Notes under the pieces: generated by a model
Database searches by the model: none
Seen by the model: only the letters and a program-made list of their open reading frames with translations
What the model was told of the DNA's origin: nothing
Part shown: positions 32,521-51,152 of the stretch, piece by piece
Layout: the number at the start of each line of letters is the position of its first letter
Numbering within the stretch: the first letter of the stretch is position 1
Sequence record: PZ386965.1
Source: a phage
Length of the DNA: 64,000 nt
Strand: one strand, 5' to 3'
Program-made: the position numbers and the translations under genes

Positions 32521-32566
32521 TTTTGATAGGACTACTATAACATAGTCCTATCAAGTTGTAAACTAC
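32521..32566 (-). promoter_or_regulatory. early promoter / stem-loop cassette (high-identity copy)
   Basis: TTGATAGGACTACTATAACATAGTCCTATC + GTTGTAAAC. Confidence 0.55.
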
Positions 32567-32799
32567 CGATTGTGTTTTAAATGTTGATAAAGTTCTTCAA
32601 CTTGTTTAGGGTCCAAAACAATTAAGTCATTTTCTTGACGAAGATAAATCCATCCCTTATCCCCAGGGCCATTTTTACAAAACATCACCGTCGTCATATC
32701 GTCATCTTCAGCGCTTTCAGGTAAAAGTTCAAGTACACCATCTTCAGATTTTCCAGTATAATCGTAAAGCATAATATCCTCACATAATCTCGTTAACAT
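32563..32799 (-). CDS. hypothetical protein
   Basis: 78-aa ORF. Confidence 0.5.
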   Translation of the reverse strand: MLTRLCEDIMLYDYTGKSEDGVLELLPESAEDDDMTTVMFCKNGPGDKGWIYLRQENDLIVLDPKQVEELYQHLKHNR

Positions 32800-32959
32800 A
32801 CATTTGCAATTCGGTGTGCGTATCAGCCATCTTTTTCATAGCTCTGTTAATGTCGATGTCTCCATCTTCGCAACCATGAGCATTTTCCCAATCAGATACC
32901 GCATTAGCGTACTCTTCAATCAAAAACATTAACTTAGAAATTTTTTCTTTACGTGACAT
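32780..32959 (-). CDS. hypothetical protein
   Basis: ATG with GAGGAGAA RBS just downstream of cassette. Confidence 0.45.
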   Translation of the reverse strand: MSRKEKISKLMFLIEEYANAVSDWENAHGCEDGDIDINRAMKKMADTHTELQMYVNEIM

Positions 32960-33030
32960 AACGTTCTCCTCTAGTAAGTAAGGTCTACTATAACACAACC
33001 TGAGGAAAAGTAAACTGCTAAATGCCAAAA

Positions 33031-33058
33031 AGCCCCAACCTTTCGGAAGGGGCTATTA
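33031..33058 (-). terminator. rho-independent terminator after rI
   Basis: AGCCCCTTCCGAAAGGTTGGGGCT hairpin followed by TTTTTGG. Confidence 0.7.
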
Positions 33059-33060
33059 AA

Positions 33061-33363
33061 TTAGATAGATGTAGGCTCTAATTTTATTTTCATGAACTCA
33101 GCAAATTGTCTGGCGGTTTTTATGCCTTGTTCATGACATTCAAATGCATCATCACAGGGACTATTTTTGTAATGCTTTGCCATATACTTATAGAATTTTT
33201 CAGAATTCTCGACATTTTGAATTTCAAACAAAGTATATACGTTTTTAATCCCTGATTCCATAAAGTTATCAAAATATGGGTCGATATGTGCAGTACCAAC
33301 GATAGGAGTTGTTGCTGCAAAAAACCCCAGCATCGCTATGACAGCTATCGCTCTTAAGGCCAT
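33061..33363 (-). CDS. rI: lysis inhibition regulator RI (antiholin)
   Basis: MALRAIAVIAMLGFFAATTP signal-anchor then DPYFDNFMESGIKNVYTLFE, collinear with T4 RI. Confidence 0.85.
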   Translation of the reverse strand: MALRAIAVIAMLGFFAATTPIVGTAHIDPYFDNFMESGIKNVYTLFEIQNVENSEKFYKYMAKHYKNSPCDDAFECHEQGIKTARQFAEFMKIKLEPTSI

Positions 33364-33375
33364 ATAGGCCTCCTG

Positions 33376-33588
33376 TTAATTTTGGCCAGTATTTATTTTT
33401 CGCCTTTGGACGGCCTTAACATCTGTGAGGTATTTTTCCAGCTTGCGCTTGCGTGTATAATCAGCTTTAGAACCAGTTTGACGGATATCCTCATTTAAAT
33501 GAGAAATAGAATGTCCTAATTCTCTTCGGATTTCATCCAATTGGGTTACAGTAAGATTACGAAGTTGTCTTTCGTTTAATTGCTGCAT
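33376..33588 (-). CDS. hypothetical protein
   Basis: 70-aa ORF. Confidence 0.5.
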
Positions 33589-33615
33589 ATATACCTCTTG
33601 GTTAGATATTAGTAT

Positions 33616-34197
33616 TTATAACAACCCTGTCAAATCATTCCAATGCTTCCGGCATAATGACACGTATCTATCAGTATCACCAATTTCAATTTGACTGCCA
33701 TCTGTAATTGGAAGTCCGTCTTCCGTGACTCTAGCTACCATTGTGGCCTTTTTACCACAATGACAGACACCTTTAAGTTCAACAAGCTTATCGGCAATAG
33801 CCATTAATGCTTGAGAACCTTCAAATAGATTACCTTTAAAATCTGTTCGTAGTCCATATGCCATTACTGGCACATTGTATACGTCAACAATACGACTAAG
33901 TTGATACACCTTTTCAGTAGTTAAGAACTGAGCTTCGTCAACAAATACACAATGAATATCCTTTTGTGCTGCAGCCCATTTATAGAATTCAAAGATGTCC
34001 ATGTCTTTTGTAATTATATTGGCATCCTGACGAATACCAATACGAGAGACTATTTCACCTTTTGAATCACGAGTATCAATAGCCGGTTTAAGAACTAATA
34101 CACCCATGCCACGTTCTTTATAGTTATGTGCAGCAGTAAGTAATGAAGCAGACTTACCGGCATTCATAGCGGCATATGTAAAAATTAAACTAGCCAT
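33616..34197 (-). CDS. tk: thymidine kinase
   Basis: 193 aa; P-loop YAAMNAGKS; C-terminal zinc cysteines. Confidence 0.95.
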   Translation of the reverse strand: MASLIFTYAAMNAGKSASLLTAAHNYKERGMGVLVLKPAIDTRDSKGEIVSRIGIRQDANIITKDMDIFEFYKWAAAQKDIHCVFVDEAQFLTTEKVYQLSRIVDVYNVPVMAYGLRTDFKGNLFEGSQALMAIADKLVELKGVCHCGKKATMVARVTEDGLPITDGSQIEIGDTDRYVSLCRKHWNDLTGLL

Positions 34198-34206
34198 AAG
34201 AGTCCC

Positions 34207-34389
34207 TTATAGTGAATTCACGTAGTCAATGAGTTCTTGTTCTTTCCTGTCAAATGATTCCATCAATGCGTGATATTCTTCGTCCGTCAAAGGAGCATAT
34301 TCATCGTACGCATTGGTGGCTGCTTGTTCATCCAATAGGTCATGGATAAGTTCGAACAGTTTAGCTTTCTCTTCTTTAGTTAATTTCAT
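34207..34389 (-). CDS. hypothetical protein (tk.x)
   Basis: Track ORF. Confidence 0.45.
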   Translation of the reverse strand: MKLTKEEKAKLFELIHDLLDEQAATNAYDEYAPLTDEEYHALMESFDRKEQELIDYVNSL

Positions 34390-49337: not shown

Positions 49338-49339
49338 CC

Positions 49340-49634
49340 TTGTTGGGGTTTCCACCTACTAGGTAAGTGTTTGTACGAAACGCCGGGATTTGAACCCGGT
49401 TATTAAGTAGTTGACGCTACTCAATATTTTTAAAAGGCCATATCTCGACCATATCCGAACGTTCCGTCAAAAACGCTACTCGGCTTACGGCAAAGATATT
49501 TCCTCGAATCGTTAATTAGGTGCGCCGTTTCTGCTGTGATGTAAGGGGATATTAACAAATCGTAAAGATTTATTAAGACCAGTCCTTACTCAGGGAACAT
49601 CAGTCCGACGACTTGCCGGTAGCGACCCGGCTTC
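49340..49634 (-). ncRNA. candidate structured stable RNA region with tRNA-like T-arm
   Basis: ~300 nt non-coding, GC-rich; CCGGG-TTCAAAT-CCCGG T-arm-like hairpin at 49392..49410; no full cloverleaf found. Confidence 0.3.
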
Positions 49635-49979
49635 TTATTTTGGCATATCATCAATTTGCTCTCGACGCCGACGCCATAGATTAATCGCTTCATAAACACA
49701 TTCAGCATTTGGTATATGGCGACAATAGTATAGTGATTCGCGTTTCTGGAACCGATGTTGTAATGGAATTTCGTTTAAAAGGTCTTTACGGTCAAAGTAT
49801 TCAAAACTAGTTAACCCGGAACGGTTTTTAAGAAACTTCCAATGTCCGAATTCATTTTTAAAATAAACGTAATCAGCGTGTTGATATAACGAATTAATCA
49901 ACCGGTCGGAAATAACTGTATCTTGTTCGTTAAAATAAAACGTTAAATCATGAACTACTAAGTAAACATTACCTTTCAT
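49635..49979 (-). CDS. hypothetical protein adjacent to tRNA genes
   Basis: ATG with GAGGAAAA RBS; track ORF trimmed because its 5' end overlaps tRNA-Arg. Confidence 0.5.
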   Translation of the reverse strand: MKGNVYLVVHDLTFYFNEQDTVISDRLINSLYQHADYVYFKNEFGHWKFLKNRSGLTSFEYFDRKDLLNEIPLQHRFQKRESLYYCRHIPNAECVYEAINLWRRRREQIDDMPK

Positions 49980-49997
49980 ATTTTCCTCACTTAAAGT

Positions 49998-50074
49998 TGG
50001 TCGAGACAGAAGGATTCTAACCTTCAACCTACGGATTAGAAGTCCGTTGCTCTATACAATTGAGCTATGCCTCG
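49998..50074 (-). tRNA. tRNA-Arg (anticodon UCU), CCA encoded
   Basis: Hand-folded cloverleaf: acceptor CGAGGCA/TGTCTCG, D-arm GCTC..GAGC, anticodon arm ACGGA-CTTCTAA-TCCGT, T-arm GAAGG-TTAGAAT-CCTTC. Confidence 0.8.
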
Positions 50075-50080
50075 AATATA

Positions 50081-50154
50081 TGACCCAGACCAGATTCGAA
50101 CTGGTAACCTTTCCCTTATGAGGGGACTGCTGCTAACCATTGAGCTACAGGGCC
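50081..50154 (-). tRNA. tRNA with CAU anticodon (Met or lysidine-Ile)
   Basis: Hand-folded: D-arm TAGCTCAATGGTTAGC, anticodon loop CTCATAA, T-arm ACCAG-TTCGAAT-CTGGT, acceptor with one mismatch. Confidence 0.7.
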
Positions 50155-50250
50155 TAAATAACTTTCTATTATGAAAGGCACTTGAGGGAGCACCTTTGGT
50201 AATAGAGGGTAGATTAATAATAACACATAATTCTTAAAGCAAATTACGTT

Positions 50251-50541
50251 TTACCGTACCATATTAATGTAGTTATATTCAATGCAACGTAATTTCAAAG
50301 GGTTCTTGAAAATATCATATTCAAGAGGGCCTGATTCAGTTTCAATAAAGAAATCAAAGTTCACACTATTAAATTTGCGGTCTTCCCAAAGTAATTTAAC
50401 CTGTGAAGATGAACGGTCGACGTAAACCTTTTCAACCTCAAAGTTAGTCAGAATACCGTAGTCATCGACTAGTGCTTTAGCTGCACGTCGGTCACTTTCA
50501 TATCCATTCTCAACGGATTTTACCTTAGCATAAAGAATCAT
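50251..50541 (-). CDS. hypothetical protein
   Basis: 96-aa ORF. Confidence 0.5.
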   Translation of the reverse strand: MILYAKVKSVENGYESDRRAAKALVDDYGILTNFEVEKVYVDRSSSQVKLLWEDRKFNSVNFDFFIETESGPLEYDIFKNPLKLRCIEYNYINMVR

Positions 50542-50900
50542 GAATGTTCCACCACTTCGAAGGTATGAGCATCAACAATATGATACCAGTCAAAATTTTC
50601 TTCTGCGTTTTTATAAATTTCGCGAAGAGCATCCACAGTTTTTCCTGTAGCAACAAGGTCGTCAATACCACCAAGAGGATAACAGTCATAACCAGCAAAC
50701 AGAAGGAAATTAATAGTTTCTGTAGGTTCTGGATGCAGTGTACCATTGTCATCGACTACTTCAAAGAACATATAACCAGGCGATTTAGTTTTAATCCAAG
50801 CCCATGCTTGAGCCGCTGAATCAAATGGTCTGCGTATCAAACGACAATCAGTGTCTTTAGAAGGATTTGCTTCAAAATCCGCATATACATGATATTTCAT
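50538..50900 (-). CDS. hypothetical protein
   Basis: 120-aa ORF. Confidence 0.5.
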   Translation of the reverse strand: MKYHVYADFEANPSKDTDCRLIRRPFDSAAQAWAWIKTKSPGYMFFEVVDDNGTLHPEPTETINFLLFAGYDCYPLGGIDDLVATGKTVDALREIYKNAEENFDWYHIVDAHTFEVVEHS

Positions 50901-51107
50901 TTACTCACCTTTTGCAATTTTATCCATAACGATAGCGATTAAGCCGATTAGAAATGCTACTACCAATGAGATAGAATTTTCGGTTGTTGTCAGTAGTCCG
51001 CAAATGAATCCTACAAACATCGAAAAACTAAAAGCCATTGAAGCAATTACTACAGCAACATTACGAATCAGTTCAGCGCGTTTCATTTTATTTCTCCATT
51101 TACTCAT
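50901..51107 (-). CDS. small membrane protein
   Basis: Two hydrophobic segments. Confidence 0.5.
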   Translation of the reverse strand: MSKWRNKMKRAELIRNVAVVIASMAFSFSMFVGFICGLLTTTENSISLVVAFLIGLIAIVMDKIAKGE

Positions 51108-51152
51108 TTGTTTTGATAGGACTACTATAACATAGTCCTATCGGCATGTAAA
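51108..51152 (-). promoter_or_regulatory. early promoter / stem-loop cassette (high-identity copy)
   Basis: TTGATAGGACTACTATAACATAGTCCTATCGGCATGTAAAC. Confidence 0.55.

Follow-up and report, generated by a model that had tools for sequence, protein, structure and literature searches.

Four near-identical early-promoter cassettes with a predicted read-through hairpin, a probable T-even/RB69 form of the promoter-early stem-loop

Why does one 40-bp string recur almost letter for letter at four places in a phage genome, when the DNA on either side of it is no more alike than random sequence? The window, 64,000 nucleotides of record PZ386965.1, comes from a phage 96-99.9% identical to Mosigvirus phages (RB69-like, T4-type), with all its genes on the minus strand. 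The original prediction held that the copies are near-identical and more alike than their surroundings, and both points are borne out. Across the 39 nt from -36 to +3, pairwise identity among the cassettes is 87-95% (mean 91%), against an average of 51% (maximum 82%) for the window's other 14 early promoters with 17-nt spacers and 27% for the 60-nt flanks on both sides; likeness fades beyond ~63 nt. The 30-mer TTGATAGGACTACTATAACATAGTCCTATC is matched without mismatch at 32523-32552 and 51113-51142 and with one mismatch at 43270-43299 and 44562-44591, where chance predicts no match in the window (0/100 shuffles), and a palindrome scan of the window with up to three mismatches found no copies beyond these. 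All four matches lie on the plus strand as written and are direct repeats. The sites had been placed correctly, except that copy 2 starts one base away from the position first given; in the degenerate tail of the string, TGTAAAC stands as the reverse complement of GTTTACA, and the variable stretch before it is N4, not N5. The inverted repeat and the promoter nature of the string had been overlooked.

Read on the minus strand, each copy has the order GTTTACA-N4-GATAGGACTA-TGT-TATAGT-AGTCCTATC, with GGAG and ATG after an A-rich leader; in the string, a perfect inverted repeat of 10 bp is combined with a -35/-10 promoter. The four copies are the top sigma70-like sites of the region (TTTACA-17-TATAGT, 10/12 matches plus TG). 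The cassettes lie 12-30 nt past a stop codon and 27-45 nt ahead of GGAG..ATG; the upstream stop codons stand 2-19 nt before the G of GTTTACA, and GGAG is 6-8 nt from the ATG. The start-region consensus CCTATCAA is common to the early promoters of T4 and Mosigvirus. Strong T4-type sigma70 early promoters at the four copies, together with their activity and start site, are predicted by homology to T4 and RB69; the promoter lists in all our counts are regex predictions. The coordinates are collected in Table 1.

Table 1. Coordinates of the four cassettes and associated features in the window.
Feature	Position	Strand	Details
Copy 1 cassette	32506..32563	-	-35 TTTACA 32562-32557; -10 TATAGT 32539-32534
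Copy 1 arms	5' GATAGGACTA 32552-32543; 3' TAGTCCTATC 32534-32525	-	
Copy 1 predicted start	~32527	-	then GGAG; ATG 32505
36-aa ORF downstream of copy 1	32395-32505	-	phrog_3515, function unknown
Copy 2 cassette	43253..43310	-	-35 43309-43304; -10 43286-43281; palindrome 43272-43299
101-aa ORF downstream of copy 2	42947-43252	-	ATG 43252
Copy 3 cassette	44545..44602	-	-35 44601-44596; -10 44578-44573; palindrome 44564-44591; GGAG
79-aa ORF downstream of copy 3	44305-44544	-	ATG 44544
Copy 4 cassette	51087..51153	-	-35 51152-51147; -10 51129-51124; palindrome 51115-51142; GGAG; directly follows ipI stop codon
61-aa membrane-like ORF downstream of copy 4	50901-51086	-	ATG 51086
7.8-kb block between copies 4 and 2	43311..51107	-	~17 small ORFs and two tRNA genes
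Paralogous early promoter	17180..17219	-	same geometry, other inner arm letters

The 5' arm consists of ten spacer bases and is the exact complement of positions -7 to +3, the 3' arm. The resulting hairpin has 10-11 bp, ~-15 kcal/mol, 10-bp arms that are perfect or contain G.U, and an 8-nt loop holding the -10 box; it is present in every MFE and centroid structure of the four copies, with z = -2.8 to -3.9 (-3.9 for copy 1, MFE and centroid). In copy 2 the 3' arm ends in ..CCTATT and forms a G.U pair with the 5' G, while the 5' arm of copy 3, GATAGGGCTA, forms one with the 3' T. From the location of the two arms it follows that the hairpin is possible only in RNA arriving from upstream; a transcript begun at the cassette itself starts downstream of the 5' arm and would stay unfolded.

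Relatives of the arm pair GATAGGACTA/TAGTCCTATC covary. Inside the same genome, the promoter at 17219 is a compensatory variant (GATAGGAAGA/TCTTCCTATC), and further pairs occur in genome L054, at the ortholog of copy 1 (GGTAGGATTA/TAGTCCTACC), in Aeromonas phage PS49 (GTAGGGCTA/TAGCCCTAC) and twice in T4 (GACAAGACTA/TAGTCTTGTC and GACAAGATTA/TAATCTTGTC). Along the copy 1 orthologs of the window, moskry and L054, one pair passes from A-U through G.U to G-C. Across 36 distinct family members, G.U accounts for 22 of the non-Watson-Crick cells on the sense strand and A.C for 2, and the 15 others sit mostly at the outermost pair; this excess of G.U could be inflated by the shared ancestry of the family and by a strand-biased mutation spectrum. 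The sense strand also folds better than the antisense strand, with Wilcoxon p = 2e-5 for T4 and p = 0.01 for one complete Mosigvirus genome. Covariation and G.U bias together point to a structure in RNA; that the hairpin acts there, and what it does, we infer.

The architecture, a spacer complementary to the start region, is general and extends beyond the four copies. Of the 54 early promoters predicted in that complete Mosigvirus genome, 21 have a spacer that pairs with the promoter's own downstream sequence at <= -12 kcal/mol, against 6.5 +/- 2.1 (maximum 16 in 5000) when partners are swapped between promoters and 2.6% with shuffled spacers. The corresponding counts are 17/39 versus 4.4 +/- 1.7 in T4 and 16/30 versus 5.2 +/- 1.7 in Acinetobacter and other T4-like loci, the Acinetobacter sample having been picked via one hairpin-bearing promoter per locus. 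Among 75 unselected T4 and Mosigvirus promoters, pairing in the specific register reaches 56.8%, compared with 51.4 +/- 1.2 after shuffling (0/500) and 33-46% in slid registers. Overall, the spacer pairs with its own start region or Shine-Dalgarno (SD) sequence in ~40% of predicted early promoters of the whole Mosigvirus genome and of T4. The palindrome of the four copies itself recurs at orthologous sites throughout Mosigvirus, at 6-8 places per genome. This subfamily numbers 7-8 copies in each Mosigvirus genome, neighboured in the tk-to-gene 1 region by internal-protein (IP) genes and ORFs of unknown function. The palindrome is also found in Tequatrovirus SH7, Serratia phage 4S and Acinetobacter Lazarusvirus phages, and with compensatory changes in PS49 and T4.

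What could such a hairpin do? It does not sequester the ribosome-binding site: in the four copies the 3' arm leaves the SD sequence and start codon uncovered and 9-20 nt separate the end of the hairpin from GGAG, so a block of translation is not obvious. Elsewhere in the window the 3' arm does lie over the SD sequence (promoters at 36667 and 40283), and the regB and denV promoters have the SD-covering form; in promoters of this kind the loops measure 17-35 nt.

The hairpin might instead be an ordinary transcription terminator of the upstream gene that overlaps the next promoter by chance, which we consider unlikely. Its place past a stop codon would fit, automatic annotation in some relatives puts a 'terminator' near such sites, and there is a precedent in the promoter-early stem-loop (PeSL) cassettes of other T4-type phages: a terminator or attenuator role was proposed for their stem-loops, one of which matched rrnB T1 in a lacZ assay. 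Against this, the stem is A+T-rich, with 3-4 G-C pairs of 10, the sense-strand sequence after it is AAAAC, and no U-run follows on either strand in any of the four copies; without a U-tract the hairpin is not a canonical intrinsic terminator. A terminator scan listed only copy 2, on the antisense strand and with a poor tail (CTTGTTGT), and genuine terminators of the window look different (AGCCCC...GGGGCT TTTTT, 33022-33054 and 49300-49332).

A palindromic DNA operator is a second candidate: a dimeric phage or host repressor would bind GATAGGACTA-N8-TAGTCCTATC over the -10 box and shut off this subset of promoters. A perfect 10+10 bp repeat does overlap the -10 box, with the same letters at 7 promoters in each Mosigvirus genome and also in other genera. 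But the half-sites lie 18 bp apart, centre to centre, which is unusual for helix-turn-helix dimers. In other early promoters this geometry is built from unrelated arm sequences, which one protein could not read in every case. The variants preserve pairing, not sequence; a double-stranded site predicts conservation of both half-sites and no strand preference, and neither the conservation nor the 22 to 2 ratio of G.U to A.C on one strand agrees with it. Finally, the recurring letters are accounted for by the start-region consensus that early promoters of T4 and Mosigvirus have in general, with which the outer 6 bp of the 3' arm coincide. T4-type phages shut off their early promoters by a mechanism reported to be unknown (PMC2988021, PMC3014915); an operator could be part of it, which speaks for this reading, yet on the evidence above we hold it to be quite improbable.

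The copies also mark places where genomes differ. Alignment with related genomes, proposed as a check in the original prediction, reveals structural variants in Mosigvirus with junctions at the copies. E. coli O157 typing phage 6 (L047) matches the window by BLAST at 53325-51108 and 43310-40350; it is thus collinear up to the end of copy 4 and again from the start of copy 2, and one 280-bp IP-like ORF flanked by the two cassettes replaces the 7.8 kb between them. Its genome of 160.6 kb, versus ~168-170 kb, suggests that the 7.8 kb are absent from the rest of it too. Many related genomes carry an extra 268-bp ORF at copy 2, in others the break falls at one or the other edge of copy 4 (query 431 or 479), and in a single genome it falls in copy 1 (query 448). 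Copy 3 is conserved without breakpoints in ~140 genomes, with no junction seen.

That homology between the copies enables excision is therefore supported as deletion or replacement, the junctions in relatives falling exactly at copies 1, 2 and 4, and the copies serve as portable homology for exchange of gene blocks. The inversion that had also been envisaged is not supported, because direct repeats permit only deletion, duplication or replacement. As for recent spread or gene conversion, neither is needed for the identity: overlapping constraints (-35, TGn/-10, the consensus CCTATCAA and complementarity to CCTATCAA) fix most of the 40 bp, and the palindrome is kept at orthologous sites. Some exchange between copies probably occurs nonetheless, because 5'-half variants are common to different loci in different genomes; copy 2 of the window has the 5' half of copy 3.

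These shared halves, and the ability of T4-type phages to recombine at short homologies, would suit a functionless inverted repeat carried along in recent duplicates or homogenised by gene conversion. We find this very unlikely, as N4 and the leaders differ among the copies and the arms do not, orthologous copies persist throughout the genus, related copies persist with compensatory changes in several subfamilies, and spacer-downstream complementarity is enriched genome-wide in three lineages. A DNA-level cruciform or single-stranded hairpin, read by a recombinase, endonuclease VII or the replication machinery to create recombination hot spots, is just as hard to sustain: extrusion is unfavourable with an 8-nt loop and A+T-rich 10-bp arms, each G.T pair leaves an A.C on the opposite strand, which would weaken a cruciform, and the 17-35 nt loops of the SD-covering variants fit RNA, not DNA. 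The indel junctions at cassettes speak for it, and the PeSL authors speculated on a stem-loop-binding recombination protein, but homology alone accounts for the junctions, since T4 recombination needs <50 bp according to work cited in the PeSL literature.

We therefore favour, with a probability of roughly 75%, the reading that the four copies are the T-even/RB69 form of PeSL, an early promoter with a read-through hairpin that is also a recombination linker. Each cassette comes directly past a small early gene's stop codon and would drive the next gene. RNA arriving from promoters further upstream would form the 10-11 bp hairpin, whose loop holds the -10 box; in the most likely working model this hairpin both marks and insulates the border between modules on read-through RNA, either by attenuation or by shielding the upstream message as a 3'-end barrier, and the promoter restarts expression of the next gene after it. 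As a linker for homologous recombination, the cassette would allow gene modules to be inserted, deleted or swapped, because it offers 40-60 bp of near-identical DNA as direct repeats between dispensable genes.

A broader and distinctly more tentative idea is that the own-spacer hairpin is a general T4-like RNA device reporting transcript origin, by which each small early gene would be expressed, processed or stabilised in keeping with its own promoter alone; it would include folding of the spacer onto the start region or onto the SD sequence (regB and denV here, and also in T4). If true, gene modules would not depend on their context and could be shuffled at will. A trans-acting factor that binds RNA or DNA might, moreover, be common to the identical-arm subfamily and contribute to the shut-off of early expression. 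For annotation, the analysis turns the repeat into four early promoters with likely start sites and marks the borders of modules where gene gain and loss occur in RB69-like phages, of use in engineering and in reading pangenome variation of therapeutic coliphages. It also offers testable handles on how T4-type phages keep dense early genes independent of read-through transcription and on what PeSL stem-loops without a U-tract do.

Among known systems, the early promoters of T4 (consensus GTTTAC..TGnTATAAT) and RB69, with 57 predicted in the latter (Nolan et al. 2006, PMC1524935), share with the four copies the GTTTACA -35, the 17-nt spacer, the TG-extended -10, the C-rich -3 to -1 and a place ahead of early genes and novel ORFs. 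These early-promoter descriptions make no mention of a hairpin, stem-loop, palindrome or inverted repeat (PMC1524935); the complementarity of spacer and start region goes beyond them. T4 e, soc, 49 and I-TevI have hairpins that sequester the ribosome-binding site (reviewed in PMC3014915). The logic is common, with a promoter inside the hairpin, so that read-through RNA folds and RNA of proximal start does not; there, however, the inner promoter is late and the 3' arm covers SD and AUG, whereas here it is early and the SD sequence is free. The polymorphic IP locus of T-even phages, in so far as it is described where Repoila et al. 1994 is cited in PMC4122927, offers a further likeness: copy 4 follows ipI, and typing phage 6 swaps an IP-like gene between two cassettes.

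The closest relatives are the PeSL cassettes of the T4-type phages RB49/phi1 and KVP40/nt-1 (Arbiol 2010, PMC2839356; Comeau 2014, PMC4122927), extended to T4/PST in the latter study. PeSL and the four copies alike are intergenic, begin at a stop codon, contain an A/T-rich stretch followed by a sigma70-like early promoter and the SD sequence, end at ATG, are repeated many times among the small non-essential ORFs of hyperplastic regions, and lie at borders of insertion, deletion or replacement between close relatives. Promoter, stem-loop, stop-to-ATG extent and genome-wide repetition are all found here, as are indel borders at copies 1, 2 and 4. The PeSL stem-loop can lie between -35 and -10 or over -10, a likeness to the four copies with their -10 in the loop, and its stems carry G-T pairs as ours carry G.U. 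The RB49 stem-loop shown to terminate is G+C-rich; the arms of the four copies are A+T-rich (GATAGGACTA) instead of GGGG/CCCC, lack a U-tract, and use the promoter's own start region as 3' arm. Their host, a Mosigvirus, lies outside the scope of those papers. The kind of element is thus already known and the Mosigvirus example is new, as are, relative to the PeSL papers, the statistics, the covariation and the sense-strand G.U bias pointing to RNA.

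A 30-nt palindromic repeat occurs four times in the window (copies 1-4 in the table), where chance would give none, and no further copy of the palindrome is present at up to three mismatches. Placed in one shared frame of 39 nt, the copies show pairwise identities of 87-95%. Their 60-nt flanks share 27%, as random sequences do. The repeat is a genuine feature, correctly spotted in the original prediction: the four near-identical copies are present, and their identity exceeds that of the window's 14 other early promoters of equal spacer length (mean 51%, maximum 82%). The coordinates first assigned hold overall, except that the start of copy 2 was one base off and the degenerate tail was slightly misdescribed.

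RB69-like coliphages of the genus Mosigvirus (mar005P1, moskry, JS09, LNA2) match the region at 96-99.9% identity. The region's counterpart on the T4 map is nrdC - tk - regB - denV - ipII/III - e - tRNA - ipI - 57A - gene 1, and all genes of the window lie on the minus strand. An Rfam scan of the whole window returned two tRNAs only, and none of its hits lay at the copies. The tRNA genes (Arg and Met in the moskry annotation) belong to a 7.8-kb block that O157 typing phage 6 is without.

Coordinates of the repeat copies, of other promoters with inverted repeats and of neighbouring features in the window
Feature	Position	Strand	Arms or motif	Remark
30-mer, copy 1	32523-32552	+		0 mismatches
30-mer, copy 2	43270-43299	+		1 mismatch
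30-mer, copy 3	44562-44591	+		1 mismatch
30-mer, copy 4	51113-51142	+		0 mismatches
Promoter	17219		GATAGGAAGA/TCTTCCTATC	
Promoter	28391		AGGTCTAT/ATAGACCT	
ipI promoter	51507		AGGATGAT/ATCATCCT	
Second subfamily	47380-47409; 16890-16919	-	T(G/A)TACAAACTCTTGAGAGCAGAGTATAATGCTCTC; GAGAGCA/TGCTCTC around -10	82% identical
regB promoter	36611-36667	-	TCTCCTCTAG/CTAGAGGAGA	3' arm is Shine-Dalgarno
denV promoter	40239-40283	-	TCCTCCAAG/CTTGGAGGA	3' arm is Shine-Dalgarno
Promoter lacking the 5' arm	47972-48001	-		TATAGT type
Common spacer motif	25702-25731; 26721-26750	-	ACCAAGGATGGTT	variants at 47716, 48214
Terminator-like hairpins	33022-33054; 49300-49332	-	AGCCCCTTCCGAAAGGTTGGGGCT then TTTTT	94% identical, G+C-rich
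33-nt leader repeat	39112-39144; 39452-39484; 39777-39809; 40538-40570; 51415-51447		MKTY.EF...	five genes
tRNA genes	50001-50074; 50081-50154	-		

On the gene strand, all four copies read GTTTACA-N4-GATAGGACTA-TGT-TATAGT-AGTCCTATC-AAA(A/T).., followed after 9-20 nt by GGAG and after a further 6-8 nt by ATG. TTTACA and TATAGT, 17 nt apart and with an upstream TG, constitute a predicted T4-type σ70 early promoter, and no promoter-like site in the 42-52 kb stretch scores better than the copies. By homology to T4 and RB69, these promoters would fire early. Each cassette begins 2-19 nt downstream of the stop codon of the preceding ORF and precedes a small ORF (36, 101, 79 and 61 aa for copies 1-4); copy 4 adjoins ipI, on its downstream side. 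Of the eight flanking proteins, a PHROG scan assigned a function to ipI alone, with no hint of a shared regulator. A resemblance to the E. coli IscR type-1 site was set aside, as its internal spacing does not match.

GATAGGACTA is exactly complementary to TAGTCCTATC. The spacer contains the 5' arm (about -25 to -16), and the 3' arm runs from the final T of the -10 hexamer through +3. The predicted start, at the usual 7 nt from the -10, is the A of ATCAAAAC; the promoter's own RNA retains just the terminal three bases of the 3' arm, so that the hairpin is possible solely in RNA coming from upstream. For copies 2, 3 and 4, the DNA separating them from the preceding promoters contains no terminator-like site. 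The hairpin appears in all minimum-energy and centroid RNA folds (centroid -14.5 to -20.1 kcal/mol), with fold z-scores of -2.8 to -3.9 in 91-101-nt contexts, and leaves the ribosome-binding site uncovered in copies 1-4. Geometry thus confines the stable hairpin to read-through RNA, the transcripts that enter the cassette from promoters further upstream. A plain terminator is unlikely: the terminator scan at the copies gave no credible hairpin with a U-run, and the absence of this run means that the hairpin is not a canonical terminator. One promoter in the window has no complementary 5' arm, and its moskry counterpart (record position 82208) keeps the full 3' part, TAGTCCTATC; the 3' arm is therefore ordinary promoter and start-region sequence, with the 5' arm as the addition.

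The same anatomy accounts for the recurrence of the letters. Downstream of the -10, early promoters of T4 and moskry share the consensus A-n-n-CCTATCAA. Among the ten 3'-arm bases, the T is the end of the -10, the A is conserved and CCTATC is the general consensus, which leaves two positions free. With the 3' arm fixed, a spacer complementing it reads GATAGGnnTA in any T4-like phage. This constraint explains the near-identical copies of Tequatrovirus SH7 (GATAGGACTA...TAGTCCTATC), Acinetobacter phage AB-Navy97 (ATAGGACTA...TAGTCCTAT) and Serratia phage 4S, for which recent transfer is not needed. Most Mosigvirus genomes contain 6-8 cassette-matching places; moskry has seven full cassettes and one with the 3' arm alone. 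The identity of the four copies is thus old; it reflects stacked constraints, and the recent spread first proposed as its cause is not required.

The arms also vary together. Copy 1 has GATAGG../..CCTATC in the window, GGTAGG../..CCTATC (G.U) in its moskry ortholog and GGTAGGATTA/TAGTCCTACC in a relative on an IMG/VR contig, a series that reads as a path from A-U through G.U to G-C. Aeromonas phage PS49 has two compensatory double changes (GTAGGGCTA/TAGCCCTAC), and T4 has arms GACAAGACTA/TAGTCTTGTC after gene 41 and also GACAAGATTA/TAATCTTGTC. In the IMG/VR scans, made with one arm fixed, about half of the matches were unrelated contigs, close to the chance level for a 15-16-mer by our rough estimate, and only matches with a T4-type -35 were kept.

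Across 36 distinct family members, the non-Watson-Crick cells comprise 22 G.U, 2 A.C and 15 others, the last mainly at the outermost pair; on the sense strand, the variants of copies 2 and 3 are both G.U. An initial count of ungapped helices in a single genome (7 G.U against 4 A.C, with A.C at helix fringes) was too weak alone and is superseded by this table, by the register test below and by the fold energies. Sense folds are more stable than antisense folds in T4 (Wilcoxon p = 2e-5) and in moskry (p = 0.01), an asymmetry expected of a single-stranded structure on the sense strand, most simply RNA. The mismatch pattern points to RNA as well, with the caveat that the sequences are related and the mutation spectrum is perhaps strand-biased. 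An operator, in which the palindrome would be a double-stranded protein site, predicts no such asymmetry and is unlikely; so is a recombination signal at the DNA level, as a cruciform predicts none either. We infer that the hairpin acts in RNA.

Other promoters of the window carry an inverted repeat of their own at the equivalent site, in other letters (a list of four, and two of a second form). The T4 counterpart (7214) of the GAGAGCA/TGCTCTC subfamily has GGGACCA/TGGTCCC. In the second form of the architecture, the 3' arm is the Shine-Dalgarno sequence: at regB and denV, 9-10 bp of the spacer are complementary to the promoter's own Shine-Dalgarno, and in the T4 orthologs (Pe 62796, Pe 65412) the letters differ but the pairing is preserved. 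The ribosome-binding site would therefore be hidden on read-through RNA and free on the promoter's own RNA. Separately, the motif ACCAAGGATGGTT forms a small hairpin, AACCA-AGGA-TGGTT, wholly inside the -35/-10 interval, another subclass of the promoter-early stem-loop cassettes (PeSLs) discussed below.

The complete genomes of moskry and T4 were assembled for a test, with early promoters predicted by one fixed rule and scored by the best RNA duplex between the spacer and the promoter's own downstream region, at a cut-off of -12 kcal/mol. It is reached by 21 of 54 promoters in moskry (partner-swap expectation 6.5 ± 2.1, maximum 16 in 5000) and by 17 of 39 in T4 (4.4 ± 1.7); 2.6% of shuffled moskry spacers attain this energy. 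Loci of Acinetobacter and Aeromonas T4-like phages, a biased sample, give 16/30 versus 5.2 ± 1.7 when swapped. All 75 T4 and moskry promoters whose spacer is 17 nt, chosen irrespective of hairpins, were aligned without gaps. The hairpin register pairs 56.8% of cells (column shuffles 51.4 ± 1.2, 0/500 as high), against 33-46% for registers displaced by 1-3 columns, and the covariation score is 0.286 versus 0.216 ± 0.015. Complementarity between the spacer and the promoter's own downstream region is general, not peculiar to the four copies; that these are functionless duplicates is unlikely. The hairpin is absent from all four promoters without a co-directional upstream gene (T4 150762 and 107281; moskry 160825 and 119310), as the read-through model expects, a number too small for a test.

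Structural variants with junctions at the copies had been predicted, and natural relatives have them at copies 1, 2 and 4. All four copies being direct repeats, the inversions also envisaged are excluded. Many genomes, among them moskry, ST0 and APCEc01, have an additional 66-aa ORF and a further promoter cassette located exactly at copy 2; where this ORF ends, and in the cassette downstream of it, they match SH7. In O157 typing phage 6, collinearity extends over 53325-51108, through copy 4; a 280-bp ORF resembling internal protein (IP) genes follows, and the alignment picks up again at 43310, where copy 2 begins. The 7.8 kb (about 17 ORFs and two tRNAs) are replaced, and the genome of this phage is about 8 kb shorter than those of relatives. 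Its IP-like ORF (KP869104, 2235-2498; 87 aa) lies between two palindromic promoters, with a leader and N-terminus resembling the window gene 39167-39481. Phage WFL6982 has a junction at 43303, within the copy 2 -35. An additional IP-like gene (340-370 bp) is present at copy 4 in several genomes, and in others the alignment ends or begins at the cassette (query positions 479 and 431). Copy 1 has a break at query position 448 in one genome and 260-bp insertions in others. Copy 3 is intact in all ~140 genomes, with no breakpoint. The 5'-half variants GGTAGG and GGGCTA occur at different loci in different genomes, and the 3' variant CCTATT remains with the gene downstream of copy 2, a pattern that would fit crossovers inside the cassette. 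These natural variants support the recombination reading.

WFL6982 is without 46094-49298, with a junction adjoining one of the terminator-like hairpins, so that terminator cassettes may likewise be recombination linkers. The 33-nt repeat spans the start codon and first codons of five genes and encodes the N-terminal leader conserved among internal head proteins; with the cassettes, it provides added short homology among IP-like genes.

Most likely, the hairpin would serve as a boundary element within polycistronic early RNA. It may be an attenuator or pause site; alternatively, it could act as a 3'-end barrier once RNase E or RegB has cut at GGAG or in the A-rich leader, a cleavage that would give the upstream message and the downstream gene separate fates. 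The variants covering the Shine-Dalgarno would silence the downstream gene outright on read-through RNA. The regularity across T4, with RNA-like mismatches and spacers that complement start regions or ribosome-binding sites, may merit an experimental test.

The PeSLs of RB49 and phi1 comprise a stop codon, an A/T-rich stretch, a σ70 promoter, a Shine-Dalgarno, an ATG and a stem-loop, most commonly in the -35/-10 interval or overlapping the -10 and drawn with G-T pairs in stems; in a lacZ assay, one of the stem-loops acted as a terminator, and recombination between cassettes gave deletions and mini-circles (Arbiol 2010, PMC2839356). PeSLs also lie beside indels in T4/PST and KVP40/nt-1 (Comeau 2014, PMC4122927). 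At the sequence level, the four copies have every feature of the class, of which they appear to be an RB69-group member. They differ in their Mosigvirus host, in A+T-rich arms with no U-tract after the stem, and in a 3' arm that is the promoter's own start region. The survey of RB69 promoters does not mention hairpins (Nolan 2006, PMC1524935). We found no earlier account of the hairpins in T4, as dyad symmetry or from transcript-end mapping, though older T4 papers could hold one. A hairpin present on a long RNA but not on the RNA started within it is known from the T4 late genes e, soc, 49 and I-TevI (PMC3014915); the same principle would apply at regB and denV, here and in T4, but with early promoters.
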